Source: a bacterium
GTDB lineage: Bacteria > BMS3Abin14
Length of the DNA: 64,000 nt
Reading direction: 5' to 3'
NCBI GenBank assembly: GCA_029210965.1
Contig: JARGFZ010000007.1
Location: forward strand, 27,052 to 91,051
Positions 5,166-21,336 of the stretch are shown piece by piece; position 1 is the first letter of the stretch, and each line of letters starts with the position of its first letter. The notes beneath the pieces are model-generated. The model ran no database searches. It worked only from the letters and a program-made list of their open reading frames with translations, and was not told where the DNA came from. The translations under genes and the position numbers were made by a program.

Positions 5166-6965
5166 ATGGTAAAAGGACGGGGTGTTCCGGTTTTACTTCT
5201 TATATTCGTGCTGGTATTAAGACCCCATATGGCGGGTGGTGCCTACCCCTTTGCTCAGGGGCTTTTTCTGGTCCCGGTCCTTGTGGGGCTTGCCCTGCTT
5301 TTGCTTTCTTCGTTAGCGACCAAAGATATCCCTGAAGGGTACTTCCCGGTATTGCTCCTGCCCTGGAGCCTCCTGCTCTGGTCTCTTATCACTCTTTTCT
5401 GGGCGCCCGACCCGGGGCAGGGATTGAGGGAGATAATTGCTTTTTTTGGAAACCTTACTGTTTTTTTCATGACTTTTCTGCTCATACGTAAAGAGAAGGA
5501 ATTTGAGATCGGATCGCTCCCTGTCCTTGGTTTAATTGTGACCCCTGTTCTTGCAAGCGCTTTTTACCAGCGGGTATTTGGCTTAGGGAAAATCCGTGAA
5601 ACCCTTCGACATTTGGAGACTTCGGGCGAGGATGTGGTCGACCTGGCCCAGATCGTTAGCCAAAACAGGGTGTTCGCTGGTTTTCTCAACCCAAATATGT
5701 TGGCCGGATTTCTGGCCATTGGGGTTTGTTTAACCCTGGATCTACTTCTGACCGCCTCCGACAGGAGACGCTTTCTTTTTTTCACTTTTCTGACGGTGGC
5801 GCAGGGCGCGGTCCTTGTTCTTACCGGATCCATCGGTGGGAGTATGGTTGCTGTGGTCATGGCGGGGGGCGTTCTTTTAGTGCGGCGAAGGTTTAAGCTC
5901 AGGGAGATGGTTCTTGCCGGTGGGGTTGTCGTCCTGATAACGGCTGGACTTCTTGCCATTCGAGGGGAAAATTTCCTGTCTGGTCCTGAAAATTCAATCC
6001 TCCAGCGGGGTGGGTACATGGCCGCAGGAATCCGAATGGCGCTTATCCACCCGGTTCTGGGTTGGGGCTCAGGATCCAGTCCAGGAGCCCTCATGGGTTT
6101 TGTGGCCGAGGGAGTGAGGCCTGTGGCTGACCCTCACAACTTTCTGGTGCGGACCTGGATCTCCTGGGGACTGCCCGGGCTATTATTTCTGGTTGCTTTT
6201 CTGTCCCTGTGGCTTAAGTCTATCGTAGACTTCTTCAGGGTCAAGGGCGTTCGGATGGTTCCTCCGGGATATGCGGGCTTTGTTTTCGGGAGCATGGCCT
6301 TTTTAGGACATAGCCTGCTTGACATGGATTTTTTTGTACCCGAGACAGCGCTATTTGGATGGTGTGTCCTCGGGGCCGCCCTGGGATTGGCTGGCGCTAA
6401 CGATAAGAGTGCCATTACCGGGAAAGCAGAATCCCATAACGGTTTCACTCTTACAATGGGCGCGGTAGCCCTGGTTATGGTCCTGCCCGTGTTCGTTTTT
6501 TTTCAGGGTGAATCCCTCGCTTTTCGCGCCGGCAAGGCCGTAGCGGAAGGTGAGTTTGAGGAGGGAGCTCACCTTTACAAAGACGCAAGGGCCATGCTTC
6601 CCATGAACGGGAGGTTCGCCCTCGATGAAGGTCGTGCCCGATATGCAGCAGGTGAGACGGATCTGGCCAATGAACTCTTCCGGAAGGCAGACTCCCTCAT
6701 GCGGGCCAGTCCCTATCCATCCTGGGAAATAGGGCGTGCGGCCCAGACGGCTGGAAAATGGCAAGGTTCCATCCCTCCACTTGAAACGGCTCTTTTGAGA
6801 TATAAAACCTCGCCGAGAATCAGGATCGATCTTGCGAGGGCGTACCTTAACCTGGGAGATTCCGGCCAGAGCTACAGGCTCCTTGAAGAGGTGCGGCGTA
6901 TGTCAATGTTCGATCCACAGGCCCGGGATCTTGCCGATGAGATCCTTTCGAGAATGGATCTATGA
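5166..6965 (+). CDS. O-antigen ligase (Wzy_C)-like polytopic membrane protein with a C-terminal TPR-like tail, candidate pilin O-oligosaccharyltransferase
   Basis: It has at least 10 TM helices, a periplasmic-loop motif 'DPHNFLVRTWISWGLPG' that resembles the WaaL/PglL/TfpO H-N-x-x-L signature, and a C-terminal soluble TPR-like region ('IDLARAYLNLGDSGQSYRLLEEV'). It lies directly downstream of pilA. Confidence 0.65.
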   Translation: MVKGRGVPVLLLIFVLVLRPHMAGGAYPFAQGLFLVPVLVGLALLLLSSLATKDIPEGYFPVLLLPWSLLLWSLITLFWAPDPGQGLREIIAFFGNLTVFFMTFLLIRKEKEFEIGSLPVLGLIVTPVLASAFYQRVFGLGKIRETLRHLETSGEDVVDLAQIVSQNRVFAGFLNPNMLAGFLAIGVCLTLDLLLTASDRRRFLFFTFLTVAQGAVLVLTGSIGGSMVAVVMAGGVLLVRRRFKLREMVLAGGVVVLITAGLLAIRGENFLSGPENSILQRGGYMAAGIRMALIHPVLGWGSGSSPGALMGFVAEGVRPVADPHNFLVRTWISWGLPGLLFLVAFLSLWLKSIVDFFRVKGVRMVPPGYAGFVFGSMAFLGHSLLDMDFFVPETALFGWCVLGAALGLAGANDKSAITGKAESHNGFTLTMGAVALVMVLPVFVFFQGESLAFRAGKAVAEGEFEEGAHLYKDARAMLPMNGRFALDEGRARYAAGETDLANELFRKADSLMRASPYPSWEIGRAAQTAGKWQGSIPPLETALLRYKTSPRIRIDLARAYLNLGDSGQSYRLLEEVRRMSMFDPQARDLADEILSRMDL

Positions 6966-8839
6966 CCGGTACGGCCCAGCCGCTGGCAAAATCCACCGCA
7001 TTCCTGCCAGAAAAGTCCTTGAGGGCGGTTGATGTCGCTCTGAGCTCCGCTGTGCTTCTCATCCCCTTCATCAGTTGGGGTGAAGTCCCGTGGCTCCTGG
7101 GCCCCTTTGTCCTTCTTGTCGCGGGTGTGCTCCTGGCTGTAATACGGGAAGGATCGATCAGAGGAAGTGTCCAGATCCCTGAGGCCCCTTTCTGGATCCC
7201 GCTTGCCATAGTGTTGGGCCTCTCCCTTAGCCATCTCGTCCGCACTCCGGTACCCTACAGCAGCTTCCTGTTCCTGGTCCACCTGGCCCTTGCGTCGGTA
7301 TTTTTCTACCTTCTCTGGTCGCGGCCAAGGAAGGTGGCCGTTATGGCCATGGTCCTGGTGTGGACCGGCATCCTGGTGACCTGGGTCGCGGTCCAGGCAC
7401 TGGTTCTGGGGATGCGTCCCCCTGCTGGTCCTTTCCCCAACCCCAACTATACAGCGACCGTTCTCCTGGTCTGTCTGGCCATGGCCCTGGGATCTCTCAT
7501 GCCGTCCCGAGAGCGGAAATGGGAAACGGCTGTTATGTTGTCGGCGGCGATGCTCGGTTCCGTCGGCCTCATGCTCATCGGATCGCGATCGGGCGGGCTG
7601 GGGATGATCCTGCTGTGGGCGGGTTATCTCATCTTCAGGAGAGGGCACATGCGCTGGGTGGCGATACTGGTGATTGCCATGATCATCCTTCTTCCCAGCA
7701 CGATCCGGCACCGGGTCACCGAAGGCTACAAGGCCGACCCACACGCCTTTTCCAGGCTCCTGATATGGGGATCGTCCCTCCGGATGGGTGCGGACCACCC
7801 TTTGATCGGTGTGGGCCCCAACCTTTTTTACGAATACGCCCCTGTTTACGCCTTTCCCACTGAGGAACTGCCGGTGCGCTATGGCCGGATCGCCAGAAAA
7901 CCCCACAACGAATACCTGAGGAGCTGGGCCGAGGGGGGTGTCATCGGTGTGATCGGCTTGGGCTTGTTTCTTTTCATTACGCTGCGAATGATGCTCCATT
8001 CGATCAACCTAGGCAGACCGGGACCGGCCCTGGCGGTGGGTATCATCCTTTACCAGGCCCTTTTCCACGATATCACTGAGGTGTTTTCCCTCATGGTGCT
8101 CATGGCCTGGTGTCTCGCGCAGATAACCCCTGAAACTGACCGAACGGTAGAGTCTGGTAATGGACCAAGGCGCTTTATTCCTGTCGCCACAGGTGTGGTG
8201 ATCCTTTGTTTTGCCCTCTGGCTCAACCTGGATCTGGCATCGAGAGCCTTCTGGTTCCAGGGCAAGAGACTTATGGACGTCGACCTGCCGGGTGCGCTCA
8301 AGGCGACGAAGGCTGCCACACTTATAAATCCCCTTCTCCCCGGCGCGTCGAGGGACCTGGCGCAGATCCGCCTGATGATGAGCGACCAGAACACCGATGA
8401 GCAGGAGTTGAGCCGGGTTTTGGCCGCCATTCTCAGGGCCCAGAGCCTCAACCGTCTGGACACCGTGCCCCCCAGACTGCAAGCTGCCATCTACATCAAA
8501 GCGGCCAGGCAGGGTGAAATGAAGGCTGCCGGGGCACTCGCCGCGGCTGCCGGGAAATTGAAGGAGGCTTCGCTTATTGAACCGCACAACGCGCTCATCT
8601 TGCTGAACATGGCTGAGGTGTATTGGGACCTCGGACAGCGTGAAAGGGCTCTGGACCTGCTGGATAATGCCCTGCGTGAAGAACCCAACTACCTTCAAGC
8701 CCACCGGACCAGGATATCCTGGTTGTCAAAACTGGATCCCGGCCGGATAACATGGGCCCAAAGCGAACTGGCAAAGGCAAAGGAAAGGGGGGCAGGGTAT
8801 CGGCCCCAGGGCGATTATGAAGAGATAATACTAAGATAG
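6962..8839 (+). CDS. Second O-antigen ligase (Wzy_C)-like membrane protein with a C-terminal TPR domain
   Basis: It is polytopic and carries the canonical O-antigen-ligase motif 'RKPHNEYLRSWAEGGVIGVIG'. A C-terminal TPR region of about 200 aa is present ('LLNMAEVYWDLGQRERALDLLDNALREEPNY'). Its start overlaps the stop of the previous gene. Confidence 0.7.
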   Translation: MTGTAQPLAKSTAFLPEKSLRAVDVALSSAVLLIPFISWGEVPWLLGPFVLLVAGVLLAVIREGSIRGSVQIPEAPFWIPLAIVLGLSLSHLVRTPVPYSSFLFLVHLALASVFFYLLWSRPRKVAVMAMVLVWTGILVTWVAVQALVLGMRPPAGPFPNPNYTATVLLVCLAMALGSLMPSRERKWETAVMLSAAMLGSVGLMLIGSRSGGLGMILLWAGYLIFRRGHMRWVAILVIAMIILLPSTIRHRVTEGYKADPHAFSRLLIWGSSLRMGADHPLIGVGPNLFYEYAPVYAFPTEELPVRYGRIARKPHNEYLRSWAEGGVIGVIGLGLFLFITLRMMLHSINLGRPGPALAVGIILYQALFHDITEVFSLMVLMAWCLAQITPETDRTVESGNGPRRFIPVATGVVILCFALWLNLDLASRAFWFQGKRLMDVDLPGALKATKAATLINPLLPGASRDLAQIRLMMSDQNTDEQELSRVLAAILRAQSLNRLDTVPPRLQAAIYIKAARQGEMKAAGALAAAAGKLKEASLIEPHNALILLNMAEVYWDLGQRERALDLLDNALREEPNYLQAHRTRISWLSKLDPGRITWAQSELAKAKERGAGYRPQGDYEEIILR

Positions 8840-8873
8840 TTTCGGGTTTCATGTTTCAGGTTTCAAGTTTGAC
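8839..8873. repeat. Heptamer tandem repeat (GTTTCNN) x5
   Basis: The sequence reads GTTTCGG GTTTCAT GTTTCAG GTTTCAA GTTTGAC. It starts at the stop of the second ligase-like gene and runs into repeat-element copy 1. Confidence 0.6.
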
Positions 8874-9029
8874 AGGGTCGCAAAAAGTCCATCATTGGCT
8901 TTTTGCTCCTCGGAAAGCGAAAAGTGTCATTTTCCCTTTCCTTACAAATAAGTGACTTACACCCGCAGTCATTGATTTGGGCGCCCATACGGGGCGCTTT
9001 GCTGGACTTTTTGCGAGTCCATCAAGTTT
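8867..9029 (+). repeat. Copy 1 of a roughly 165-bp multi-hairpin intergenic repeat element
   Basis: It is about 85% identical to 14802..14966 in the same orientation. It begins 'GTTTGACAGGGTCGCAAAAAGTCC...' and contains several internal palindromes ('GCAAAAAGTCC-loop-GGACTTTTTGC', 'GGAAAGnGAAAAG...TTTTCCCTTTCC', 'GGGCGCCC...GGGGCGC', 'GACTTTTTGCGAGTC'). Confidence 0.75.
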
Positions 9030-9062
9030 TGGGCTTCAAAATACAATATCCAGGATCAAAGA

Positions 9063-9098
9063 ACCAGGATCTAAAAATGTATCATCCTGGATTTTTTT
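9063..9098 (+). terminator. Candidate rho-independent terminator downstream of the ligase-like genes and repeat copy 1
   Basis: The stem 'CCAGGAT/ATCCTGG' is followed by T7 ('...ATCCTGGATTTTTTTAT'). Confidence 0.45.
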
Positions 9099-9434
9099 AT
9101 CTAAATGTACCAGATGTTCAGAAGAAAAGCGGACCCCCTCTTCCTTTTTATCCCGTTCCTTCCCTATCTACGCCCCCACCTCTGCAAGTAGAACATAACG
9201 GGGAACAGGAAAGCGGTTCCCAACATCTACAGGGTTCGGTTGCTGAAGGGGACGATCTCCAACAGCCAGGGCTCGCGGTAGTTGGGAGGCAAGGCTACGA
9301 GAGGGAAGAACTCCCAGGTCAGATAAGGGTAGAAAACCTTCATGGCCGCGATTCCGTCTGGTGCGTAGGTCTATTTGATGTTGTATTTTACCAGAGTCGA
9401 AGTTCTCCGTGGTAAGAGATGGCGGTGGTAAGGT

Positions 9435-10355
9435 TCACTCTATTCCCTTGTGCAGGAGGCGCCACAGCCTGTTTTCCATTGCCCCCAAAAGTGCTCTGGG
9501 CTGAATAGCGAACCGCCTGGCCTTGTAATAATATCTGAGGAACGCCCGGTCTAAAAGGTTTCGGTCGCGTCCCGTGAAATCCCGGAACACAGCGTTCACT
9601 TCTTCCCCCCGATGGCGGCCCACTTCTCCGGACCCCGTGAGCCCTTCGCTGTGAACCCTGAAAGCGGAAAGGAAATCCGGGATCCGTCTGGAGTTGGCAC
9701 CCGCCGCATGCATCCTGTAAAAAAGGTCGTAATCCATGGCGTATCGGTAGAGTTTCAGGCCACCGATCCTGTGAAACAGATCAGTCCTCCAAAGGGCGGA
9801 CTGCTGATGGATGATGATGTTGATCTCGTAGATGAAATCCCGGATGTCGAAATCGATTGTGTGCACACGTTTGGTGACTCGATCATCCACGTCCACTTCA
9901 ACCTGATCGCCGTAGACGAGGTCGGTTTCGGGATCATCCATGAAAGCCCGGGCCATTTTATACAGAGCGCCGGGGAGGAGGAGGTCGTCGGAGTTGATCC
10001 ACGTCATACAGGCGCCGGTGGCCTTACCTGCACCCTGGTTGATGGCGTCGCTCTGCCCGCGATCGGGTAAGGTATGCCAGTAGGCGAGGCGTCTTTCATA
10101 TTTCCTGATGATGTCGACGCTGCCGTCGGTGGAACCGCCATCGATGACGATGTGTTCAAGGTTAGGATAGTCCTGGTTGTGGATGGAAAGGATGGTCCTC
10201 TCCAGAAAAGCGGCCTGATTGTAGGATGGAGTGATGACCGAGATCCTTGGCCACGCAGCGTCGGATTTAGGAGAAGCCTCCGGGTCGAAACGTGGTGATT
10301 TAATGAATTCCCTGATCTCGCGGGTGATCTTCCTGCTGACCGGTAGAAAATCCAT
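9435..10355 (-). CDS. Family 2 glycosyltransferase
   Basis: This is a 306-aa ORF on the minus strand. The GT2 N-terminal signature 'VITPSYNQAAFLERTILSIHNQDYPNLEHIVIDGGSTDGS' and the DxD-type motif 'WINSDDLL' are present. Confidence 0.85.
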   Translation of the reverse strand: MDFLPVSRKITREIREFIKSPRFDPEASPKSDAAWPRISVITPSYNQAAFLERTILSIHNQDYPNLEHIVIDGGSTDGSVDIIRKYERRLAYWHTLPDRGQSDAINQGAGKATGACMTWINSDDLLLPGALYKMARAFMDDPETDLVYGDQVEVDVDDRVTKRVHTIDFDIRDFIYEINIIIHQQSALWRTDLFHRIGGLKLYRYAMDYDLFYRMHAAGANSRRIPDFLSAFRVHSEGLTGSGEVGRHRGEEVNAVFRDFTGRDRNLLDRAFLRYYYKARRFAIQPRALLGAMENRLWRLLHKGIE

Positions 10356-10698
10356 CAGGGTGTATCCAGGCTTTCAATCTTCATGGACATTTTCATCCTT
10401 TCCAGGGTCTTGTCCAAAGGGTGAAGGGAACCAGCAGGACCGCAGTATAATCCGTTGGTTTGTGTTGGTGGAAAATGGACCGCAATGTGGCACTCACCAC
10501 TTTTCACTTCTGCCACCGATAGTGACTATTTTTATGTTGGAAAGGTCAGTTTTGTCGGCTATACTACGAAAAATAGTCATAGTGCTGGTCTGTACCTTAC
10601 CATGTTTCTTTTATATCTGACCCTGATGAGTGGATACGGAAGTATAAGGGAAAGATCGGAAGGCGGTCAACAACGTTACGGATTTTCGAGGTTCATGC

Positions 10699-12645
10699 AT
10701 GTGCGGCATAGGGGGAATCTACCGCAGAGGTCAGATCCCGCCTGCCCACAGTTCCCTTCTGGAGGCTATGGCCGACGCCCTGGCTCACAGGGGACCTGAT
10801 GGCCGAGGGACCTGGAGCGATCCTCCATCTGGCATCGGTTTGTGTCACACGAGACTGGCCGTTCTGGACCTCAGTCCCAGGGGCGCCCAACCCATGACCG
10901 ATGTCGACGGCAGGGGATGGATCGTTTACAACGGTGAGGTTTATAACTATGGTGCGCTCCGGCAGGAACTTGAAGGGCTCGGCTGCCGGTTCATGAGCGA
11001 AACGGACTCTGAGGTGGTCCTTGTAGCCTGCCTTACCTGGGGCGTCGAGGAAGCCCTCGACAAGTTTTTGGGGATGTTCGCCTTTGCTCTCTGGATCCCC
11101 GGAGAATCGGCCCTCTACCTTGTACGTGACCGGATGGGAATCAAGCCTCTCTATTACGGGTGGGCCGGTGATGACCTGGTCTTCGGTTCCGAGTTAAAGG
11201 CCCTTTGTGTTCATCCAGGTTTTACCAGGACAGTAGACCCCAGAGCTCTTGAGCTGTTCCTCATGCTCCAGTATATCCCCTCTCCCGGAACGATCTATAC
11301 CGATGCCCGCAAGCTGCCGCCAGGTCATTTCATACGGCTGGATCCGGAAGGGGAGACTCTGGTGGCCTGGTGGGACCCCTATCATGTCCATAATGAGACT
11401 GAGTGGATGGGAAGCGGATCTGCCGTTCTGGAACTGTCCGGGCTCCTGGACGATTCGGTGCATCGCCGTCTTGTGTCGGACGTTCCACTTGGAGCCTTTC
11501 TGTCCGGGGGGATGGACTCGGGACTGGTGGTCGCCGCCATGGGCAGAACGGGAGTGAGTTCTCCCTCCACCTTCACTGTTTCCTACGCTGAGGACGATTA
11601 CGATGAAGGGCCCATGGCTGCGGATGTGGCCGGATATCTGGGCACCAGGCACCACCAGGTGAAGATCGACAGCCGCACTCTCCTTGACCGGATATTTGAT
11701 CTCCCACAGATCTTCGATGAGCCTCTCAGCGATCCGTCGGCCCTCCCCATGATCGTGCTGTCACGCCTCGCCCGTGAGCACGTCACCGTTATTCTCAGCG
11801 GTGACGGCGGGGATGAACTCTTCGGCGGTTATGACAGGTACCGGGCCGTTGACGGCTACCTGAACCGTTTTGCCGGTTTATCTCCATTCATAAGGCGGTC
11901 TGCCGCCGCCATCATGGCCGGGATCCCCTCAAGGTCCCTGGCCCGAGCCAACAGTTTCCTGAAGAAGGTATCCGGTAGGGCTCCCGTGGAGAATTTCCCG
12001 GGAAAGTGGGAAAAACTCCTCAAGCTTATCGTTCAAAATGACCCTGCCTCAGCCTACCAGACATCCATCGGGATATTTTCGGCCGCCGAAGCCGGTGAGG
12101 CCCTCGGAGGACAAAAAGTTCCCGCCCTTCCGGACGCTTTCCTGTCATGCCTTAACGGGCCATCCAATAGTTCGTTCATACGCCGGATGATGGATCTGGA
12201 CACCAGGACCTTTCTCGCCGATGACGTTCTGGCCAAAGTGGACAGGGCCAGCATGGCATCAGGACTGGAGGTCAGGGTTCCTCTCCTGGATCACAGGATT
12301 GTCCAGTGGAGCAGGAGGGTGGATGATGAAGACCTGTTTGAGGGGAGTCAAGGCAAGGCGCCCCTCAGGCGGTTGGCCCGGAGGGACCTTCCCGCGCATA
12401 TTGCCAACCGGCCGAAGATGGGTTTCACGATGCCCCTGGATTCATGGCTGCGAGGGGAGCTTCGGGAGCTAATTAATCAGTATCTGGGAACAGGTTCGAG
12501 GGTGCTGGAGAACTATTTTGATCTTGGTTATGTGAACCGGCTGGTACGGGAGCACCTGACAGGTCAGAGCAACCATCACGAAAAACTCTGGAACCTCCTC
12601 GTTTTCGCACTGTGGGAAGAAAAGTGGAAACCGGCAGCCGCATAG
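10699..12645 (+). CDS. asnB: Asparagine synthetase B-type glutamine amidotransferase, common in polysaccharide loci
   Basis: The N-terminal 'MCGIGGI' has the class-II glutaminase Cys2. The PP-loop 'SGGMDSG' is present (residues 'FLSGGMDSGLVVAAM'). Confidence 0.88.
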   Translation: MCGIGGIYRRGQIPPAHSSLLEAMADALAHRGPDGRGTWSDPPSGIGLCHTRLAVLDLSPRGAQPMTDVDGRGWIVYNGEVYNYGALRQELEGLGCRFMSETDSEVVLVACLTWGVEEALDKFLGMFAFALWIPGESALYLVRDRMGIKPLYYGWAGDDLVFGSELKALCVHPGFTRTVDPRALELFLMLQYIPSPGTIYTDARKLPPGHFIRLDPEGETLVAWWDPYHVHNETEWMGSGSAVLELSGLLDDSVHRRLVSDVPLGAFLSGGMDSGLVVAAMGRTGVSSPSTFTVSYAEDDYDEGPMAADVAGYLGTRHHQVKIDSRTLLDRIFDLPQIFDEPLSDPSALPMIVLSRLAREHVTVILSGDGGDELFGGYDRYRAVDGYLNRFAGLSPFIRRSAAAIMAGIPSRSLARANSFLKKVSGRAPVENFPGKWEKLLKLIVQNDPASAYQTSIGIFSAAEAGEALGGQKVPALPDAFLSCLNGPSNSSFIRRMMDLDTRTFLADDVLAKVDRASMASGLEVRVPLLDHRIVQWSRRVDDEDLFEGSQGKAPLRRLARRDLPAHIANRPKMGFTMPLDSWLRGELRELINQYLGTGSRVLENYFDLGYVNRLVREHLTGQSNHHEKLWNLLVFALWEEKWKPAAA

Positions 12646-13805
12646 GGGTTCTTCATGTCATCAGCGGCCTTGGTCTGGGAGGAGCCGAGAGGATGCTCGT
12701 GTGGTCAGCCAGATATCACGACCGGAACCTGATCAGGATGGGTGTGGTAAGCCTCATGTCCGGTGGTGAACTTGCCGACGAGATCCTCAGGGAGGATGTT
12801 GAGGTATATGAACTGGGACAGGCCAGGGGCAGGCTATCACCCTCCTCCTTTACCAGACTGATGAACATTACCAAGGAGTTTGATCCCCAGGTCATTCAGG
12901 GGCACATGTATCACTCCAACCTTCTGGTGCGGATCGCGGGCGGGTTGAGACGACAGACAAGGGTGTTGAGCACGAGACATATTGATCTTGCTTCCCCTGC
13001 CAGACGGTTCATAAACGGGGCCACCGGGTTTTTAAACGACGGCACCCTTGTTTTCTCCCAGAAGGTGCTCGATGAGGAAAGAAAGGAGAACCTGTTTCGA
13101 CGCTCCATAAAATTAGTTCAGTACGGGGTCGAGATACCGGATCGTCAAGACGCTGATCGCGAGCCGGGAGAGGCGTTGGAGGACGAGGGAAGGGGCGAAC
13201 TGAGAGAGGACCTGAAAATCCCCCCGGATGCTTTTGTCTGGACGGCAGTGGGCCGGCTATCAAGGCAGAAGGGTTTTGCCTGTCTGATCGATGCTTTTTC
13301 CAAAATAGAGAACCTCGGTGAGGGCTCCTTCCTGCTCATCGTAGGTGATGGAGAGGACAGGGGAATGCTGGAGGACCGGGCAAGGGAGAAAGGGGTAGAC
13401 CAAAGGGTTATCTTCGCCGGGTTCAGGCCTGATACGATGCCCCTTCTGGGCATTTCCGATGCTTTCGTCCTGTCGTCCCTGTGGGAGGGAGGTCCTCTGG
13501 TGATCCTGGAGGCTATGGCCGCCGGTCTTCCCGTTGTATCAACGCGGGTCGGGGATGCTGCATCCATGGTGACGGAAGGTGTGACCGGCACCCTGGTGGA
13601 ACCAGGGGATGCCGGACAGCTTGCCGAGGCCATGAACCAGGTCCAGAGTATGGGGTCTGACATCCGTGAGTGGGGCCTCAGGGGGCGCCGCAGGGTTGAG
13701 GAACATTATGATTTCAGGCGTGTGCAAGGGGAGATGGAAACCTACTATCAGGAGCTTGCCGGTGTCACCGGGCCGGTACAGAAACGGGGGATCAGTCCTG
13801 GATGA
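12612..13805 (+). CDS. Family 1 (GT4-type) glycosyltransferase
   Basis: It has the GT-B fold signature 'VLSSLWEGGPLVILEAMAAGLPVVSTRVGD', an E-X7-E-like motif. The start overlaps the asnB 3' end, so the true start may be a downstream GTG or ATG. Confidence 0.85.
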   Translation: MGRKVETGSRIGVLHVISGLGLGGAERMLVWSARYHDRNLIRMGVVSLMSGGELADEILREDVEVYELGQARGRLSPSSFTRLMNITKEFDPQVIQGHMYHSNLLVRIAGGLRRQTRVLSTRHIDLASPARRFINGATGFLNDGTLVFSQKVLDEERKENLFRRSIKLVQYGVEIPDRQDADREPGEALEDEGRGELREDLKIPPDAFVWTAVGRLSRQKGFACLIDAFSKIENLGEGSFLLIVGDGEDRGMLEDRAREKGVDQRVIFAGFRPDTMPLLGISDAFVLSSLWEGGPLVILEAMAAGLPVVSTRVGDAASMVTEGVTGTLVEPGDAGQLAEAMNQVQSMGSDIREWGLRGRRRVEEHYDFRRVQGEMETYYQELAGVTGPVQKRGISPG

Positions 13806-14800
13806 TTATTAAATACACCTTCACCTTTATCGTTTCTCTGGGCGCCGTTCTTGCTCTCACGCCATGGATGGCAAGGACTGCCAAAGACATCGGGATCGTT
13901 GACAGACCGGACGGAGATTTGAAAAATCATCCTGAACCCGTACCCTACATGGGGGGGCTTGCCGTTTTCGTGGCATTTCTTATTGGCTTTTCTCTCTTCT
14001 ACGAACTGGACAAGCAGATGCTTGCCATATTGCTGGGAGGAACCCTTATCGTGCTCCTGGGTTTTTTAGACGATATCGGGAACCTGGGGCCCGCCACCAA
14101 ACTTCTGGGACAGGTTCTTGCGGTCCTCATCGTAATGAAGGCGGGTATAGCCATCAAGATAGTCTTCCTTCCTCTTTATATTACATATCCGCTGTCTTTC
14201 CTCTGGCTCATGGGGATGACCAACGCCTTTAACATTATCGACATCATGGACGGCCTCTCCTCGGGCGTGGGCGCGATAGCATGTGTCTTCCTCTTCATCG
14301 TGGCACTTTCCTCGGGACAGGCAGGTGTAGCCCAAATGGTCCTTGCTCTCATGGGCGCACTCATCGGTTTCCTCAGGTTCAATTATCACCCGGCCAGAAT
14401 ATATCTGGGTGATGCCGGCAGTTTGTTCATCGGTTTCATGCTGGGTGCTCTGGGAATGGTGGGGATATATGCCAGAGTGAACCCCGTGGCTGTTTTAGCT
14501 CCCATATTCATTCTGGGGGTGCCTGTTTTCGACACCCTTTTTGTCATGATGGTTCGGTGGAAGCGCGGGCTTAATCCTCTGAAGGGGAGCCCGGACCACT
14601 TTGCCCTGCGGCTCCGGAGGTGGCGCCTTACAGTGTCTCAGACAGTTATTTTGAGTTACGGGGTCTCATTTTTAATGGGAACTGTAGCTTTGATCATGGT
14701 GTACGGTAATGAACAGACCGCTGTCGGCGCTCTGCTTACAGTAAGCCTTGGCATGATGCTGTCGGCCCTGTGGTTGTGGAAGATAGACGGAAACCTTTAA
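13802..14800 (+). CDS. Polyprenyl-phosphate sugar-1-phosphate transferase (WecA/MraY-like), an initiating glycosyltransferase
   Basis: There are 10-11 TM segments. The N-terminal motif 'DIGIVDRPDGDLKNHPEPVPYMGG' and the 'NAFNIIDIMDGL' DD-type motif are typical of WecA/WbpL/MraY. Confidence 0.85.
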   Translation: MIIKYTFTFIVSLGAVLALTPWMARTAKDIGIVDRPDGDLKNHPEPVPYMGGLAVFVAFLIGFSLFYELDKQMLAILLGGTLIVLLGFLDDIGNLGPATKLLGQVLAVLIVMKAGIAIKIVFLPLYITYPLSFLWLMGMTNAFNIIDIMDGLSSGVGAIACVFLFIVALSSGQAGVAQMVLALMGALIGFLRFNYHPARIYLGDAGSLFIGFMLGALGMVGIYARVNPVAVLAPIFILGVPVFDTLFVMMVRWKRGLNPLKGSPDHFALRLRRWRLTVSQTVILSYGVSFLMGTVALIMVYGNEQTAVGALLTVSLGMMLSALWLWKIDGNL

Positions 14801-14966: not shown

Positions 14967-14973
14967 AGGAGGA

Positions 14974-16977
14974 ATGATCCTGTCTGTGGATGATAGCAGC
15001 CGCCAAAAGTTAAGGAGTTTTTCCAGCCCGGTAGTCCTGGCCGCCCTTATCCTCCTACTCCTTGTAGTGGGAAAGGAGGTCATGTTCCCGGTGAGGGTCA
15101 TGGTGTGGCACGTTAGTGCCCTCTTGTGGTGGTTGACCGTCTCGGCTGCCTGTCTGGGGCAGGGTGCCTTTTGGTTCAAGGTGCTGGGGGGTGAAAAGCT
15201 GTTACTGCCTCCGGGTATGGTCATCAGCGTCATTATGGGGCTCGGTCTGGGGGCCATGTCGATGGAAGTTCTGGTATTGGCCGCATTGGGGCTCATGAAC
15301 ACACCCGCTCTGACGATACTGGTTCTCCTGGTCCTCATCCAGTCAATGCTTTTCGGAAGAAAGTTCGTATTTGCAGCTGTTAGAAGCGCGTCGCGGGACG
15401 CTTCCCGGCGGGCAAAGGAGGCTGTCCTTCCCCTTGGGATGGTCCTTATTTCCGCTGTGATCTCCTTTCCAATTGTCCTGGTGCCTACAAGGGCTTTCGA
15501 CGCCCTGAGTTATCATCTCGAGGTGCCGCTTCGTTTTCTCCAGGCTGGCGGTATGGTCAACATTCCCGAGAACCTCTACTCCTATTCACCACTCCTGACC
15601 CAGATGCTTTACGGACTGGGGATGGGACTTGTGGGTGCTGATCTTGCCGGTCTTTTTTATTACCTGTTTTTTATCCTTACTATCTGGACGATCTGGAGCG
15701 GTGGCGAAAAACTTTTCGGCAACCTGGGGGCCGCCTGGGCTGCGGCTCTCCTGGCGCTTACCCCCGTATTCCTGGTGGAGGTTCCCCAGACCGGCGCCGA
15801 CTGGTCCATGACCTTTTTCCTGCTTGCGGCCCTGTTCCTGGTCACTCGCGAGGAACGGGACGTAAAGCAAATGGTCCTGGCCGGGATCCTGGCAGGGATG
15901 GCGGCGGGCTGTCGCCATCAGGCGCTGGGCTATGCCATTGTCCTGATCCCCGCAGCCGGTCTCGCTACGGATCTTTTCAAAAGACGTACCGGTATTATAA
16001 GATGTTGGTCAGTTTTCGTGCTGTCTTCAATGGTTTCAACGGCTCCGTGGTACCTGAAAAACCTGGTCCAGACCGGCGACCCCCTCTACCCGCTTCTAAG
16101 TTCCATAACAGGAAAACTTGGCCACAACATTGACTTCGTGGATTCCTTTGTAGGTTCAAGGTCCACAGATCTTCTCTGGTCCTGGATAATGGTGCCCTAC
16201 CAGGCTACCTTCGATCCGATGAGGCTGAGCATGACCGCTACTATCGGGATCCTGCCCATCGCCCTCGTCTTGCTGCTGCCGTTTGTTAAAAAGAAACAAG
16301 GTGGCAGTGCCTTTCTTCTGCTCTGGGTTCTGCTGTCTTTTGTCGCGTGGCACCTGACTTTCCGAACTTTCCGTTACGCCATGCCGATGATGGTCGTGGG
16401 CTATCTCTGGCTGGGTGCGCTCCTTGCCCACATTGCCCGTGGAAATGGTTTCAGGGCGAATGTTTTGAAGGTTGTTGTTTCCGTTTCCCTTATCGCCAAT
16501 GCAGGGGTGTTTCTGGGACTTTTCGATTACACAAATAAAAGCATAGATGCCGCCCTGGGAACCAGGTCTCCCGAGCGGTACCTCACGGAGACATATGAGA
16601 TCTATCCGGCCATAAATTTCCTGAACCGGATCGATCCGCCGCCTGGCAGGGTTCTTTTTCTCGGTGAAATGAGGGGGTTTTATTCAAGATTTTCCAGGGA
16701 AGTGCCGTCCCACAACGCTCCCAACCGTCTCCTGGAAATGGTTAAACGGGGTGAATACCCCGAGCAAATGGTACAGGAACTCAAGAATGCCGGGTTTACC
16801 CACATCCTCTTTAACCCCGCGGAGTGGGAGAGAATGGCCTACGGGAACCGGAACGCCCCGCTGTGGGTACTCACGGCTCTGGAAAAAGAGGCACTTGATT
16901 CCATGTTAAGGGGGCAGACGGACCGTGTCTTCGCCGCCAACGGGGTCAGTGTTTACAGGATCCGAAATGAGTATTGA
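14974..16977 (+). CDS. Large polytopic membrane protein, paralog A; GT-C-like or uncharacterized transmembrane glycosyltransferase candidate
   Basis: The track ORF 14770..16977 starts inside the repeat element. I place the start at the ATG at 14974, just after AGGAGG, although the spacing is short and this is uncertain. The N-terminal two-thirds has roughly 12-14 TM helices, and a soluble domain of about 200 aa follows. It shares conserved blocks with the next gene ('F(F)DA(M/L)(T/S)YHLE', 'YPAINFLNRIDPPPGRVLFLGEMRGFYSRFSREV', 'AGFTHILFN'). Confidence 0.55.
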   Translation: MILSVDDSSRQKLRSFSSPVVLAALILLLLVVGKEVMFPVRVMVWHVSALLWWLTVSAACLGQGAFWFKVLGGEKLLLPPGMVISVIMGLGLGAMSMEVLVLAALGLMNTPALTILVLLVLIQSMLFGRKFVFAAVRSASRDASRRAKEAVLPLGMVLISAVISFPIVLVPTRAFDALSYHLEVPLRFLQAGGMVNIPENLYSYSPLLTQMLYGLGMGLVGADLAGLFYYLFFILTIWTIWSGGEKLFGNLGAAWAAALLALTPVFLVEVPQTGADWSMTFFLLAALFLVTREERDVKQMVLAGILAGMAAGCRHQALGYAIVLIPAAGLATDLFKRRTGIIRCWSVFVLSSMVSTAPWYLKNLVQTGDPLYPLLSSITGKLGHNIDFVDSFVGSRSTDLLWSWIMVPYQATFDPMRLSMTATIGILPIALVLLLPFVKKKQGGSAFLLLWVLLSFVAWHLTFRTFRYAMPMMVVGYLWLGALLAHIARGNGFRANVLKVVVSVSLIANAGVFLGLFDYTNKSIDAALGTRSPERYLTETYEIYPAINFLNRIDPPPGRVLFLGEMRGFYSRFSREVPSHNAPNRLLEMVKRGEYPEQMVQELKNAGFTHILFNPAEWERMAYGNRNAPLWVLTALEKEALDSMLRGQTDRVFAANGVSVYRIRNEY

Positions 16978-17022: not shown

Positions 17023-18882
17023 GTGGGGCCTTTGAGCGCCTACCTGTGGTGGATCGTCATTCTGGCTGTGTCATGGGGTCAGGGGGCACTCCTGCTGCGT
17101 GTATTGTATTCTGAAGGTCCGAAGGGCGAACGTGAAATGAGGCCAGCTCTGGTCATCGGACTGGGTCTGGGAGCCCTGTCTCTGGAGATATTTCTTCTGG
17201 GGCTGGCCGGGTTTTATAATACGCAGGCCATTACCGCTCTGGTCCTTGCAGTCCTGGTCGCCGTTGCGCCTGTCCTGAGGAAGGATATCGTCCGTATCCT
17301 CCCCGGAGTCACGCCCGGGGTCCAGAAGTTCGGTCCCGGAACAAGGATCCCTCTTATCCTGATAAGTATCGCCGGCCTCGTTAACCTCCTGTTTACACTC
17401 GTTCCCCCGGTTTTTTTCGATGCCATGACATATCACCTGGAACTGCCCTCCCGTTACCTTTTGGAGGGCAAGGTATTTCACGTATCCGAAAACCTGTATT
17501 CCGGTTATCCCCAGATAGCCGAGATCCTTTTCGGGGCCGGGATGGCCCTTGACGGTCTTGACCTGGCGGGAATGATCTCTATGACTTTCCTTCTCCTTAC
17601 CATTCTCCTTCTGTGGGAATGGGGGAAGGAACGGTTCGGGGAAGCGGGAACGGCCTGGGGCATCGCCCTCCTGGTCCTGACACCCCCTCTCATGGTCATT
17701 GCGGGGTTCTTTGAGAACGACTGGGCCGCCGCGTTCTTTACGCTTGCGACCCTTGCCATCCTTGCTGAAGGGGATCGAAGACCGGCGAGCATGGTGCTGG
17801 CAGGCTGCATGGCCGGCTTGGCCACTGGCTGCAAATACAATGCCCTGGCTTTCGCTCTGGCCGCTCCCCTGGCTGCGGGGATCTGGGACGACCTCAGGGA
17901 AAAGAGGGGCCTCCATTCAGTTCCATGGGGGATCTTCCTCTTGTCCGCCCTGGTTGTGGTCTCCCCCTGGTACCTGAAGAACCTCCTTTTTACAGGTGAT
18001 CCCCTCTATCCTCTTCTCGCGGGATTTGCCGGGAAGGTCCCTGGCCTTAAGATCCTTGCGGCCGACACGCATTACCATACTATTTCCATTAAGGATATCT
18101 GGACATGGGCCCTTGTTCCCTACTTCGCTGTGTTCAAACCCTGGAGCTTGCAGTTCCCCATGTCTATCGGTAGGCTCCCCGTGGTGCTTTTACTGACCCT
18201 GCCTTGGCTCAAGGGCAGCCGGACCGGGAACAGGTTTCTCGGTACCTGGGCCCTGCTTTTCTTCGTGGCCTGGTACTTCTCTTTCAGATCTGGACGGTTT
18301 CTGATCCCTCTGCTGGCTGTCGCGTTCCTTTATATGGGTACCGGTTTTGCGCGTGTCCTGGCAGTTGATTCAATCTGGAGCAGACTCTTGAAGGCGTTCG
18401 CTGTTATCATGCTGCTGGCCAACGTGTGGATTTTCCTTGATTTCGACGCCGGGTACGCTAACCGGGCCGGGATCGCTTTCGGGATGACGAAGGATAAGGA
18501 ATACCTTTCCAGTAACTATCCCCTGTACCCTGCCATTAATTATCTAAACAACCTCGACCCGCAGCCGGGCAAGGTCCTTTTTTTGGGGGAAATGAAGGGT
18601 TTCTACTCCAACTTTTCCAGGGAGGTTGCCACTTTCGAAATGCCGCATAGGCTCATTGAAATGGTAAAGGACGGCAGGACATCGAATGAAATGGCGAATG
18701 AGCTTTCCAGGGCCGGATTCACCCACATCCTTTTCAACACCTGGGAAATGAAAAGGCTTGCGGCAAAGTCTCCTTTCCTGAGGATCGATGATGAGGCGGC
18801 ATCCATGTTGACCCGGTTCCTGTCCGACCAGGCTGATATCGCGTTCGAGGAGAAAGGGATATATGTCTTTACCCTCCGCTAA
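17023..18882 (+). CDS. Large polytopic membrane protein, paralog B, a tandem duplicate of 14974..16977
   Basis: This 619-aa protein has the same architecture and motif blocks ('FFDAMTYHLELPSRYL', 'YPAINYLNNLDPQPGKVLFLGEMKGFYSNFSREV', 'AGFTHILFN'). Confidence 0.55.
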   Translation: MGPLSAYLWWIVILAVSWGQGALLLRVLYSEGPKGEREMRPALVIGLGLGALSLEIFLLGLAGFYNTQAITALVLAVLVAVAPVLRKDIVRILPGVTPGVQKFGPGTRIPLILISIAGLVNLLFTLVPPVFFDAMTYHLELPSRYLLEGKVFHVSENLYSGYPQIAEILFGAGMALDGLDLAGMISMTFLLLTILLLWEWGKERFGEAGTAWGIALLVLTPPLMVIAGFFENDWAAAFFTLATLAILAEGDRRPASMVLAGCMAGLATGCKYNALAFALAAPLAAGIWDDLREKRGLHSVPWGIFLLSALVVVSPWYLKNLLFTGDPLYPLLAGFAGKVPGLKILAADTHYHTISIKDIWTWALVPYFAVFKPWSLQFPMSIGRLPVVLLLTLPWLKGSRTGNRFLGTWALLFFVAWYFSFRSGRFLIPLLAVAFLYMGTGFARVLAVDSIWSRLLKAFAVIMLLANVWIFLDFDAGYANRAGIAFGMTKDKEYLSSNYPLYPAINYLNNLDPQPGKVLFLGEMKGFYSNFSREVATFEMPHRLIEMVKDGRTSNEMANELSRAGFTHILFNTWEMKRLAAKSPFLRIDDEAASMLTRFLSDQADIAFEEKGIYVFTLR

Positions 18883-20179
18883 CTCCCGTGCCCCGGTCGT
18901 CATTATCGGGGCAGGCTTAGCCGGGCTGGCGGCGGGACGCGTTCTCGGTGCCGCTGGCGCGGACTACCTTATTGTGGAGGCCGCAGACCGTCCTGGCGGC
19001 CTGTGCCGTACCGAGGTGGTGGACGGTTTCACCTTCGACTACACCGGGCACCTTCTGCATTTAAGGGAGGGGGAGTCCAGGGACCTTATCCTTGAGCTGA
19101 TCGGGGATGGTCTTGTAGAGCAAAACCGGAAGGCTTCCGTATATGTGGAAGGGGTTTTTGTGGATTATCCCATCCAGGCCCATTTCGGTAAATTGCCGGC
19201 CCCTTTCGCCGGGAAGTGCCTGGAGGAGCTTCTGGTAGCTGCTGATGGGACGGTTTCCGGGGAGATATTTTTTGACCAGTGGGCGGAAAAACGGTTCGGT
19301 AAAACCCTGGCCAGGCTTTTCATGATCCCCTACAACGCCAAGCTCAACGTTCATCCCCTGGAAGAGATGGAGATCTCCTGGACATCCTGGTCGGTGCCTG
19401 TTCCCACAGCCCGGGAACTCAGGGCCATCGCACGGGGGGAAACTCCTCCTGCCTACGGTTACAACGCCACCTTTTTCTATCCCCGCAAGGAAGGCATAGA
19501 GATCCTGCCCCGCAGCCTGGCCCGTGGTCAGGAGACCTTCATTCTCAACGGTACGAAAGTTGACCGGGTGAACGCTTTTGCCCAAACGGTGACCCTGGAT
19601 AGGGGTGAGGTACTTCCCTTCAGCTCTCTCATAAGCACCGTGCCTCTTCCGGGGCTCCTGGAAATAACTGAGGGCCTGAACAGTTCTCTGGCCCGATCCG
19701 CCGGGAGCCTCAGGTATAGTTCGGTCCTCGGGATCTGCATGGGTCTCGACGGTCCTGTCAACACCCAGGATCATTGGGTCTACTTCCCCGATGAGCGTCT
19801 GCCTTTTTACCGCGTGGGTTTCCCCACGAACTTTTCCGCCAGGGTCGCGCCTTCAGGCTGTGGTTCCCTTTACGCCGAGGTGGCTTATATCCCGGGTTCA
19901 CCCCCGGATGCGGACCGGGTTGCTGATAAAGTTCTCGAGACCCTGGCCGATACGGGGCTCATTGATCGGTCCACCAGGGTTGCGGCCAGAGTTGATCAGG
20001 AAATGCCCTGTGCCTACGTTTTTCATGACCTTTACAGAGCCAACCATCTCGATGCCATTCTTGGGTCATTGGGTGAAAAAGGTATTCGATCCGTGGGGCG
20101 TTACGGGGCCTGGGAGTACTCTGCCATGCAGGATGCGGTTCAGTGGGGGCTTAACGCTGCCAGGGGGGTCCTGGGATGA
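18863..20179 (+). CDS. FAD-dependent oxidoreductase of the amine-oxidase or UDP-galactopyranose-mutase type; UGM-like (Glf) favoured
   Basis: It has an N-terminal Rossmann motif 'VVIIGAGLAGLAAG', a 'DRPGGLCRTEVVDGFTFDYTGHLLH' block resembling the UGM substrate-binding region, and a C-terminal 'GRYGAWEYSAMQDAVQWG' resembling the UGM 'GRLxxYxYxNMD' motif. It is embedded in a glycosyltransferase cluster. Confidence 0.5.
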   Translation: MSLPSANSRAPVVIIGAGLAGLAAGRVLGAAGADYLIVEAADRPGGLCRTEVVDGFTFDYTGHLLHLREGESRDLILELIGDGLVEQNRKASVYVEGVFVDYPIQAHFGKLPAPFAGKCLEELLVAADGTVSGEIFFDQWAEKRFGKTLARLFMIPYNAKLNVHPLEEMEISWTSWSVPVPTARELRAIARGETPPAYGYNATFFYPRKEGIEILPRSLARGQETFILNGTKVDRVNAFAQTVTLDRGEVLPFSSLISTVPLPGLLEITEGLNSSLARSAGSLRYSSVLGICMGLDGPVNTQDHWVYFPDERLPFYRVGFPTNFSARVAPSGCGSLYAEVAYIPGSPPDADRVADKVLETLADTGLIDRSTRVAARVDQEMPCAYVFHDLYRANHLDAILGSLGEKGIRSVGRYGAWEYSAMQDAVQWGLNAARGVLG

Positions 20180-21336
20180 GCCGGATCCCTGTGGTACACG
20201 TTATAACCAAACTGGAGTTCGGCGGCGCCCAGCAGAACACCCTGTATACAGTAGCTTCTCTGGATCGGGAGCGCTTCGAACCGGTTCTCATGACGGGCCC
20301 CGGTGGTTATCTCATGCCTGAGGCCCTGGACCTGGACCTGGACCTGAGGGTTGTGTCCAACATGGAGCGTGCCCTGAGACCGGGTGTCGATGGGGCGGCC
20401 TACAGGGAATTGGGCAAACTTCTCGAACCCTACCGGGGCCGACCGGCTATCGTTCACACTCACAGCTCCAAGGCGGGCATCCTGGGCCGCTGGGCTGCCC
20501 GTAAGAACCGTGTCCCGGTTATCATCCACTCCATCCACGGGTTCGGTTTCACCCCGGCACAAAGTCCTCCAAAACGATTTCTCTTCCAGACGGCAGAGCG
20601 TCTTACCTCCCGCATCACCGATCATTTTATCGCCGTGTCCGAATCCAACCGTAAAGATGGGGCACGCCTGGGTCTTTTCAGCCCGGAGCGGTGCACCCTT
20701 ATCAGATCGGGTTTCGACCTTGACCGGTTCCTCCGTGCCCAACCGGTCAAGCCCGATCTCCTTCTTGATCTGGGTATCCCTCACGGATCACCCCTCGTTC
20801 TCATGGTTGCCTGTTTAAAGCCCCAGAAGGCTCCCCTCGATTTTGTCAATCTGGCTGCCCTGGTGCATCGTGACTTTCCGGAAGTCAGATTCCTGCTTGC
20901 AGGTGACGGGGAACTGAGAGGAACCCTTCTTGCAGAGGTGGACCGCCTGGGGCTGAAAGGTGTTTTTATAGCTCCGGGATGGCGTGAGGATATTCCCGAG
21001 CTCATGAAGAGCAGCCGCGTCGTTGTCCTTACCTCGAGATGGGAGGGGCTCCCGAGGGTGATACCCCAGGCCAAGGCGGCTGCCCGTCCGGTAGTAGCTG
21101 CCGCCGTTGACGGTTCCGTTGAGGCCATAAGGGAAGGTGTGGACGGGTACCTCTGCCCCCCCGGGGATGTGGACTCCATGGCCCAAAGGGTGATCTGTCT
21201 CCTGAAAGACCAGGGCCTGGCCGATCGCATGGGCCGGGAAGGGAACCGGGTAGTGGACGAATGGGACCAGGACCAGATGGTGAGGAAGCAGGAGGAGCTC
21301 TACGAGCGACTCCTCAGAGAAAAGAACATATGGTGA
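20176..21336 (+). CDS. Family 1 (GT4-type) glycosyltransferase
   Basis: The N-terminus 'PVVHVITKLEFGGAQQ' and the C-terminal block 'VVLTSRWEGLPRVIPQAKAAARPVVAAAVDGSVE' are typical of GT-B retaining glycosyltransferases. Confidence 0.85.
   Translation: MSRIPVVHVITKLEFGGAQQNTLYTVASLDRERFEPVLMTGPGGYLMPEALDLDLDLRVVSNMERALRPGVDGAAYRELGKLLEPYRGRPAIVHTHSSKAGILGRWAARKNRVPVIIHSIHGFGFTPAQSPPKRFLFQTAERLTSRITDHFIAVSESNRKDGARLGLFSPERCTLIRSGFDLDRFLRAQPVKPDLLLDLGIPHGSPLVLMVACLKPQKAPLDFVNLAALVHRDFPEVRFLLAGDGELRGTLLAEVDRLGLKGVFIAPGWREDIPELMKSSRVVVLTSRWEGLPRVIPQAKAAARPVVAAAVDGSVEAIREGVDGYLCPPGDVDSMAQRVICLLKDQGLADRMGREGNRVVDEWDQDQMVRKQEELYERLLREKNIW

Follow-up and report, generated by a model that had tools for sequence, protein, structure and literature searches.

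The stretch of DNA analysed here (the window: 64,000 nucleotides of contig JARGFZ010000007.1, assembly GCA_029210965.1, from a bacterium of the GTDB lineage BMS3Abin14) is filled over its first 41 kb by a type IVa pilus supercluster, as judged from open reading frame (ORF) calls and Pfam matches. Between pilA, the gene of the major type IVa pilin, and the prepilin peptidase gene pilD, it contains a candidate glycosylation island (Table 1), whose members had been listed in a preliminary description of this DNA and were all found at their places by ORF, Pfam, and NCBIfam analysis. The island starts with Lig1, the gene of a polytopic Wzy_C protein with a C-terminal tetratricopeptide repeat (TPR) domain, which is considered here as a possible transferase of a glycan to the pilin.

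The order pilA, terminator hairpin, Lig1 is retained on the same strand in the window and in all of the approximately 26 further contigs which include DNA upstream of Lig1, among 45 loci compared. The Lig1 homologs come solely from unclassified metagenome-assembled genomes (MAGs) and metagenome contigs. The gap between the two genes amounts to 82 bp in the window and to 77-210 bp across the loci, and the junction is kept while the identity of Lig1 falls from 94% to about 38%, and lower still in the homolog P0210. Because the arrangement recurs in 30 or more related contigs, it should not be regarded as a product of chance. Lig1 itself evolves faster than its neighbors, with identities across the loci of 38-79%, compared to 79-87% for PilC, 68-88% for PilR, 63-82% for the WecA-like protein, and 62-76% for PilA. 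The hairpin is the strongest terminator-like structure of the region, its stem lying 19 nt before the start of Lig1, and a GACGGCGG...CCGCCGTC hairpin with a T tract occurs between the two genes in all 11 related loci examined.

PilA consists of 141 residues, namely an 11-residue leader and a 130-residue mature part which begins with FTLIEL and contains no Cys; an alternative in-frame ATG is present at 4643. The protein carries the N_methyl motif, and its top NCBIfam match, below cut-off, is the Myxococcus-type PilA. In an alignment of 11 homologs, the last 13 residues reach a conservation of 0.85, as compared with 0.60-0.68 across the remaining globular part, and follow the consensus G-[ST]-P-S-G-I-[ST]-P-N-x-Y-P-H (G-S-P-S-G-I-T-P-N-A-Y-P-H in the region proposed below as target), with three conserved hydroxyl residues adjoining prolines. 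Most loci show YPH at the very C-terminus, and WP, N, TP, and R occur as variants. Upstream of pilA, a -24/-12 element may serve as a sigma54 promoter, which would fit the PilS and PilR (sigma54 activator) genes located just 5' of it. The most divergent branch has two tandem pilA paralogs ahead of Lig1 (L010 5723-6816, L032 1466-2699, L034 606-1687; L numbers denote related loci), the first of which shares 45-50% identity with the PilA of the window.

Table 1. Features of the window in their order along the DNA, with positions, strands, and assignments.
Feature	Position	Strand	Assignment or remark
pilC	168-1376
pilS	1385-3058
pilR	3055-4449
Sigma54-type -24/-12 element	4584-4599	+	TGGCAC-N5-ATGCA, read from the sequence; upstream of pilA
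pilA	4658-5083	+
Intrinsic terminator	5112-5147	+	16-bp stem, 10 G-C pairs, T tract; after pilA
Glycosylation island (candidate)	5166-21336		Between pilA and pilD
Lig1	5166-6965	+	Wzy_C and TPR_19/TPR_16; 599 aa
Lig2	6962-8839	+	Wzy_C and TPR_19; accessory
Pseudogene remnant, 67 aa	9185-9385	-	tblastn; 66% identity to L004 protein
GT2 glycosyltransferase (GT-A fold)	9435-10355	-	Pfam Glycos_transf_2, 106 bits; core
AsnB-like glutamine amidotransferase	10699-12645	+	Pfam Asn_synthase, 316 bits; TIGR03108-like below cut-off; accessory
GT1a, GT4 family	12612-13805	+	Pfam Glycos_transf_1; accessory
WecA/MraY-family N-acetylhexosamine (HexNAc)-1-phosphate transferase	13802-14800	+	PF00953, 121 bits; initiating enzyme; core
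GTC1, polytopic GT-C (PMT_2/GT39-like)	14974-16977 (approx.)	+	Accessory
GTC2, GT-C paralog with C-terminal alpha/beta domain	17023-18882	+	PMT_2; accessory
UGM-like flavoenzyme	18863-20179	+	Eukaryote-type; core
GT1b, GT4 family	20176-21336	+	Pfam; core; present in L010, L027, L028, L033
pilD, prepilin peptidase	21498-22325	+	Pfam A24_N_bact and Peptidase_A24; downstream island edge
HAMP histidine kinase plus sigma54 activator (second pair)	22301-25458		Directly 3' of pilD
Minor pilins	from 25603
pilMNOPQ	34836-40431

Lig1 and Lig2, Wzy_C proteins with TPR domains

The assignment of the first two island genes to TPR-tailed Wzy_C-type membrane proteins, as given in the preliminary description, is confirmed by the presence of TPR in both products and by their scores for Wzy_C (PF04932), which amount to 41.8 bits for Lig1 and 61.0 bits for Lig2 at a gathering cut-off of 31.7. 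The start of Lig2 and the stop of Lig1 overlap by 4 nt, and the two proteins share only 23% identity over the Wzy_C core and therefore should be regarded as old paralogs. The H-N-x-x-L loop motif, which had been taken as a feature shared with pilin oligosaccharyltransferases, is indeed present as HNFLV in Lig1 and HNEYL in Lig2, but it belongs to a generic WaaL/PglL pattern, H-[NSQ]-x9-G-x-x-G, and is not diagnostic of enzymes acting on proteins. The pattern reads H324-N325-x9-G335-x-x-G338 in Lig1 and HNEYLRSWAEGGVIG in Lig2. Among 23 homologs of Lig1, R281, R318, and H324-N325 are invariant within a large loop (residues 267-325), and these Arg and His residues are presumably counterparts of R215, R288, and H338 of Escherichia coli WaaL.

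The predicted structural model of Lig1 (pLDDT 85, pTM 0.87) finds its best structural match in the O-antigen ligase WaaL (Foldseek TM 0.61), and its membrane domain shows the WaaL-like fold of 12 transmembrane (TM) helices. Searches of the PDB with Lig1, Lig2, and profiles of the Lig1 family retrieved nothing but TPR proteins or noise, leaving WaaL out of sequence reach, and the relation between Lig1 and WaaL is therefore drawn solely from the comparison of folds. Lig1 shares 18% identity with the WaaL of Cupriavidus metallidurans (7TPG/7TPJ), a protein of 12 TM helices that lacks TPR, whereas 13 helices are predicted in Lig1. Beyond the 12-helix core, a Lys-containing loop leads into the additional, strongly hydrophobic helix (residues 427-445), after which the TPR region extends over about 150 residues (approximately 450-597). 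Both the N- and the C-terminus of WaaL are cytoplasmic, and the TPR domain following a 13th helix should therefore be periplasmic, like the active site, a location that is also suggested by the charge distribution. This domain superposes on the TPR of O-GlcNAc transferase and SPINDLY at 1.8-4 Å. As a separate observation, the N-terminal half of Lig1 (5166-5900) weakly matches the IctB family (TIGR00947, E 7.7e-6), the sole NCBIfam match of the protein, and its invariant FLNPNMLAGF resembles the NPNL pattern of the cyanobacterial IctB-like Wzy/WaaL group (PMC4594306). An exhaustive profile search indicates that the Lig1 clade is small, with about 13 clusters at 50% identity, while the larger family around it contains 67 representatives at E<=1e-30 and 12,549 at E<=1e-3.

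Lig1 was set apart from TfpO, TfpM, PglL, and PglS by domain content and by the published descriptions of these enzymes, which represent the characterised classes of O-oligosaccharyltransferases (O-OTases), all four with Wzy_C and none with TPR (PMC9829042). Like Lig1, TfpO (PilO; Pseudomonas aeruginosa 1244, Acinetobacter) and TfpM (Moraxellaceae) are polytopic Wzy_C proteins with a conserved catalytic His, are encoded immediately 3' of the major pilin gene in the same orientation, and share with it the proposed chemistry, the en bloc transfer of a short glycan linked to undecaprenyl diphosphate (Und-PP; PMC9829042). They differ in comprising only about 425-460 residues without TPR, compared to the 599 residues, the extra TM helix, and the TPR tail of Lig1, and TfpO uses O-antigen units made elsewhere, whereas the glycan genes of Lig1 are located in the island itself. 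PglL (Neisseria, Burkholderia, Acinetobacter) and PglS (Acinetobacter baylyi) resemble Lig1 in their size of 520-600 residues, their Wzy_C core, and their catalytic Arg and His residues; they modify internal sequons in exposed Ser/Ala/Pro-rich segments and are frequently encoded next to pilin genes (PMC3643930, PMC9829042). Such adjacency applies to 21 of 31 predicted PglL homologs (PMC3643930), and the genes of TfpO, TfpM, and PglS all adjoin that of their pilin substrate (PMC9829042).

A precedent for the TPR domain is provided by TfpW, the pilin D-arabinofuranosyl transferase of P. aeruginosa group IV strains (Pa5196/PA7), whose gene follows pilA immediately, as that of Lig1 does. Both proteins combine a polytopic transferase with a large C-terminal TPR domain, which is periplasmic in TfpW and predicted to be so in Lig1 (bioRxiv 10.1101/2020.04.19.049825), and the best structural match of the TfpW domain is the TPR of O-GlcNAc transferase, the same type on which that of Lig1 superposes. 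A furanose sugar is used by TfpW, and the Lig1 island encodes a probable pyranose/furanose mutase; in some species, pilA, tfpW, and genes of furanose biosynthesis are clustered (bioRxiv 10.1101/2020.04.19.049825). The membrane domains are clearly distinct, since that of TfpW is an ArnT-like GT-C domain, whereas Lig1 contains a WaaL-like Wzy_C domain and none of the TfpW-type GT-C. The sugar supply differs as well, with D-arabinofuranose delivered on polyprenyl phosphate via DprE1/DprE2-type enzymes in the case of TfpW and a UGM-like mutase plus a WecA-like primer in the island. Lig1 joins a catalytic module of the TfpO type with the domain layout of TfpW.

Core and accessory genes of the island

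The glycan set of the preliminary description is completely present, with the GT2 gene on the minus strand, but the GT-C paralogs, Lig2, AsnB, and GT1a proved to be accessory, as some islands lack them. In the smallest version, L033, the order is pilA, Lig1, GT2, WecA, UGM-like, GT1b, pilD, and L010 shows two pilA copies, Lig1, GT2, WecA, one GT-C gene, UGM, GT1b, and pilD, so that pilD forms the downstream edge in both loci, as in the window. Lig1, GT2, the WecA-like and UGM-like enzymes, and GT1b should be regarded as the core because they are retained in these smallest islands, whereas L033 does without Lig2, AsnB, GT1a, and the GT-C enzymes. This minimal island represents a coherent short-glycan kit, in which Lig1 is accompanied by the initiating enzyme, a mutase, and two glycosyltransferases. 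Downstream of Lig1, Lig2, AsnB, GT1a, and GT-C genes are gained and lost: Lig2 is missing in the more divergent islands, AsnB in L004, L006, L010, and L033, and the GT-C genes in L027 and L033, while L001 contains an additional methyltransferase and L004 three extra polytopic proteins. The persistence of the pilA-Lig1 junction amid this turnover supports a link to the pilin.

The label of the flavoenzyme as similar to UDP-galactopyranose mutase (UGM) is justified by full-length similarity and by active-site motifs, and its type is eukaryotic. It matches PDB entry 4dsg with E 2.7e-44 across residues 11-434, aligns end to end with the enzymes from Trypanosoma and Aspergillus, and keeps the flavin-loop His (GH), the Arg of PFYR, and the GRxGxWxY motif (GRYGAWEY), and thus is probably a pyranose/furanose mutase of nucleotide sugars. 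Scores for the bacterial Glf models, the Pfam GLF domain and TIGR00031, stay below cut-off. The protein is closer to trypanosomatid and fungal mutases than to bacterial Glf, with TIGR00031 reaching only E 8e-5, over the dinucleotide-binding N-terminus.

Among the other core proteins, the WecA-like transferase scores 96 bits against TIGR02380 (wecA), below cut-off, and GT2 is a soluble protein without any TM helix, which is transcribed divergently and found in nearly all islands. The possibility that GT2 is a GtrB/ArnC-type synthase which provides the GT-C enzymes with polyprenyl-phosphate sugars was considered and rejected, as it has neither a TM helix nor a corresponding NCBIfam match. The AsnB-like enzyme probably catalyzes the amidation of a sugar carboxylate. 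GTC1 and GTC2 share 40% identity over 621 residues and both contain PMT_2, which scores 41.5 bits in the test for GT-C membership (cut-off 26.1); the ORF of GTC1 opens at 14770, yet homology starts only near codons 69-115. The AlphaFold2 model of GTC2 (pLDDT 88.7) displays a GT-C fold, with Foldseek matches to STT3, ArnT (5f15), AglB, PglB, and ALG12 (E 1e-7 to 5e-4), and D133 and H138 in its first external loop are invariant; an invariant D133 is noted for GTC1 as well. Neither paralog contains TPR or adjoins pilA. Further GT-C-like proteins are encoded in other islands, one of them TPR-tailed and some with weak PMT/TMEM260-like matches.

Some traces of rearrangement are seen within the islands. 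The 67-residue remnant between Lig2 and GT2 matches the C-terminal part of a 520-residue protein with about 9 TM helices, which is intact in L004 (13416-14978) and weakly PMT/TMEM260-like (Pfam matches below cut-off), and points to gene decay and turnover within the island; orf170 on the opposite strand (8903-9415), which overlies this GT-C remnant and has no family match, was discarded as a gene. In L003, a protein of 587 residues is encoded upstream of GT2 (5763-7526, minus strand), in which about 9 TM helices are followed by a TPR domain at the C-terminus; no catalytic family was found for it, and its overall architecture is that of TfpW/TMTC-type enzymes. In L045, the gene for peptide chain release factor 3 (prfC, 9437-11035) is inserted between a 517-residue, weakly GT22-like membrane protein and GT2, and the pilA-Lig1 junction is retained despite this insertion. 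Finally, the islands of CP070698 (L007 16100-21773) and CP070682 (L008 11450-21449) break off mid-gene, at residue 40 of WecA and at about residue 486-520 of Lig1, respectively, and are followed by unrelated housekeeping genes (cytochrome c assembly, nuo, a sigma factor). Both MAGs are deposited as complete chromosomes, and the breaks are likely due to misassembly or to rearrangement at a strain-variable region.

Lig1 as candidate pilin-linked transferase and the alternatives

On balance, it appears moderately probable from the sequence data that Lig1 represents a pilin-linked O-OTase which is fed by a dedicated, short, furanose-containing glycan on Und-PP. In the corresponding model, pilA would be transcribed from the sigma54 promoter in dependence on PilS/PilR, and the conserved hairpin would halt most transcripts, while read-through past it would supply Lig1 and Lig2, for which there is no space for an own promoter. 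In the cytoplasm, at the membrane, Und-PP-HexNAc would be formed by the WecA-like enzyme, as suggested by its family, and extended to a short oligosaccharide by GT1b and the soluble GT2. The mutase may provide a UDP-furanose, most simply UDP-galactofuranose, and GT1a and the AsnB-like amidotransferase may add an extra decoration in the version of the window. After translocation by a flippase presumably encoded outside the island, Lig1 would transfer the glycan en bloc to Ser or Thr of PilA in the periplasm, employing the invariant R281 and H324, with its TPR domain presumably docking the pilin. The exposed and conserved tail of PilA would be the likeliest target region and plausibly contains an internal sequon, although this is speculation from the sequence pattern. 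Lig2 may act as second transferase with another range of glycans or acceptors, and the GT-C paralogs may use polyprenyl-phosphate donors to attach sugars to the glycan or the protein, both being strain-variable accessory modules.

The proposal of pilin O-glycosylation in the preliminary description is strengthened by the invariant pilA-Lig1 junction, by the WaaL/O-OTase fold with its catalytic His, and by the TPR precedent in TfpW, but the PglL Pfam domains, a C-terminal Ser/Thr in the pilin, and a flippase are lacking. The last-mentioned points belong to a series of observations that weigh against a pilin-linked O-OTase. NCBIfam assigns no O-OTase, WaaL, or polymerase family to Lig1 or Lig2, and the PglL_A (PF15864) and Wzy_C_2 (PF11846, PglL_B-type) domains, which flank Wzy_C in PglL, are absent from both even at E<=10. 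Moreover, sequence and fold do not distinguish a protein O-OTase from WaaL. TfpO and TfpM target a C-terminal Ser or Thr of the pilin, whereas the PilA of the window ends in His. Wzx or any ABC transporter serving as flippase, as well as Wzz and an outer-membrane export protein, are missing from every version of the island. The nearest outgroup homologs, which have TPR-like tails, are located in glycan loci away from pilins, P0217 next to sugar epimerases and a Wzm/Wzt ABC transporter and P0212 in a trio of Wzy_C, GT2, and WecA genes. The linkage to pilA is therefore younger than the TPR tail and the ligase-GT2-WecA module, neither of which is in itself a pointer to a pilin acceptor. Likewise, all syntenic loci come from a single lineage and amount to one long-lived association, not to independent observations. 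The more distant GT-C relatives (P0098, P0104, P0106) and Wzy_C relatives (P0128, P0129, P0139) have uninformative gene neighborhoods, none of them near a pilin.

The best surviving alternative, which we nevertheless consider unlikely, regards the island as an O-unit cluster for lipopolysaccharide (LPS) or lipo-oligosaccharide, in which Lig1 and/or Lig2 would be a WaaL capping lipid A-core with a short, WecA-primed furanose unit, and the adjacency to pilA an inherited accident. It would account for WaaL itself being the best structural match of Lig1, for the neighborhood of P0217 to Wzm/Wzt and sugar-nucleotide enzymes, and for the combination of a WecA-like primer with GT4, GT2, and Glf-like genes, which is generally known as a classic O-antigen set; AsnB and the GT4 enzymes also look like those of exopolysaccharide or O-antigen synthesis. 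In addition, the PilQ secretin marks the host as diderm, and it therefore probably requires a WaaL somewhere. However, the TPR tail is kept clade-wide although WaaL requires no protein-binding domain, and the pilA-Lig1 junction with its shared terminator persists amid the reshuffling of the remaining island. WaaL genes are usually found in loci for LPS core or O-antigen, whereas Lig1 is located in an otherwise pure type IV pilus supercluster together with glycan genes, and the window contains neither Wzx, Wzy, Wzz, or an ABC transporter for the glycan nor nearby LPS core genes.

Still less likely is a system for broad protein O-glycosylation or for a surface polysaccharide cooperating with the pili (compare the exopolysaccharide of Myxococcus), in which Lig1 and Lig2 would act on many periplasmic or surface proteins or polymerize a glycan, with PilA as one substrate at most. 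The tandem pair of divergent Wzy_C-TPR enzymes would agree with such a role, as would the outgroup Wzy_C-GT2-WecA trio, which has no pilin beside it and hints at an ancestral module without pilin specificity, and several minor pilins as well as a candidate pilin-fused adhesin (see below) are available as possible substrates. Acinetobacter, which reportedly possesses one pilin-specific and one general O-OTase in the same host, may serve as precedent. Nevertheless, a general system would not need the strict linkage to pilA observed in the clade, and genes for polymerase, co-polymerase, and export functions (Wzy, Wzz, OPX) are absent from the Pfam scan of the window, which fits a short glycan. 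It is very improbable that the GT-C paralogs act as TfpW-like pilin glycosyltransferases with polyprenyl-phosphate donors while Lig1 and Lig2 serve another glycoconjugate: although TfpW is an ArnT-like GT-C enzyme (bioRxiv 10.1101/2020.04.19.049825), GTC2, in whose external loop 1 an Asp is invariant, has a confident GT-C fold near ArnT, STT3, AglB, and PglB, and its NCBI name refers to GT39, the protein O-mannosyltransferase family, L027 and L033 retain pilA-Lig1 and the core glycan genes without any GT-C gene, the paralogs of the window are located away from pilA and lack TPR, and no GtrB/ArnC/DprE-type gene for donor synthesis accompanies them, GT2 being unanchored.

Returning to the pilin-linked O-OTase, the island is probably a pilin glycosylation island of an uncultured lineage, new in its enzyme architecture and its set of genes, whereas the kind of enzyme and its adjacency to pilA are already known from other O-OTases. 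To our knowledge, the four characterised O-OTase classes are all proteobacterial, and none has a dedicated acceptor-binding domain. We therefore tentatively raise the possibility that Lig1 might represent a fifth bacterial class, in which a WaaL-fold Wzy_C enzyme would have gained periplasmic TPR-mediated docking of the acceptor in convergence with TfpW, would modify an internal Ser/Thr-Pro sequon near the C-terminus of a Cys-free pilin, and would receive a dedicated furanose glycan, with the island acting as a hot spot of Wzy_C and GT-C swapping that diversifies the pilus glycan. Glycosylation of pilins affects phage resistance, adhesion, and pilus mechanics, and O-OTases are working tools for the production of bioconjugate vaccines. 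If the proposal holds true, Lig1 and PilA would constitute a new enzyme-sequon pair, and a Wzy_C enzyme that has its own periplasmic TPR domain and stays tied to its pilin throughout an uncultured lineage would illustrate how the WaaL fold can acquire the recognition of acceptors; if the island serves LPS ligation instead, there is nothing unusual about the finding.

The pilA-pilD slot of the supercluster

The preliminary description had compared the island with those of Pseudomonas, a parallel that holds for the presence of pilin accessory genes, but not for their position, which is immediately downstream of pilA there and not between pilA and pilD. The Myxococcus-type pil supercluster provides the better structural comparison. 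In M. xanthus, the genes are said to follow the order pilB-T-C-S-R-A-G-H-I-D-S2-R2-M-N-O-P-Q, and the window shows the same succession of pilC-pilS-pilR-pilA, pilD-pilS2-pilR2, and pilMNOPQ, with the pilGHI ABC-transporter genes in the slot between pilA and pilD in Myxococcus and the glycosylation island in the window. Hence the slot of such superclusters can house differing accessory systems, lineage by lineage. Clustered type IVa pilus genes with two PilSR pairs are also known from Cystobacterineae (PMC6060248). The kinase ORF of the second pair in the window overlaps pilD, and its arrangement fits PilS2/PilR2 of Myxococcus.

The G+C content of the island (0.50-0.60) is the same as that of its flanks, and neither tRNA genes nor other Rfam families were found anywhere in the window; horizontal transfer of the island was considered and finds no supporting sign in a G+C shift or a flanking tRNA. 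Among the minor pilin genes, there is an ORF of 1948 codons (26720-32566, plus strand), in which residues 78-102 carry the N-terminal methylation motif of prepilins and the Ig-like domains Big_7, Big_3_3, and Invasin_D3 come next. Its product is a candidate for a giant pilin-fused adhesin, and the real start of the gene is probably near 26930.

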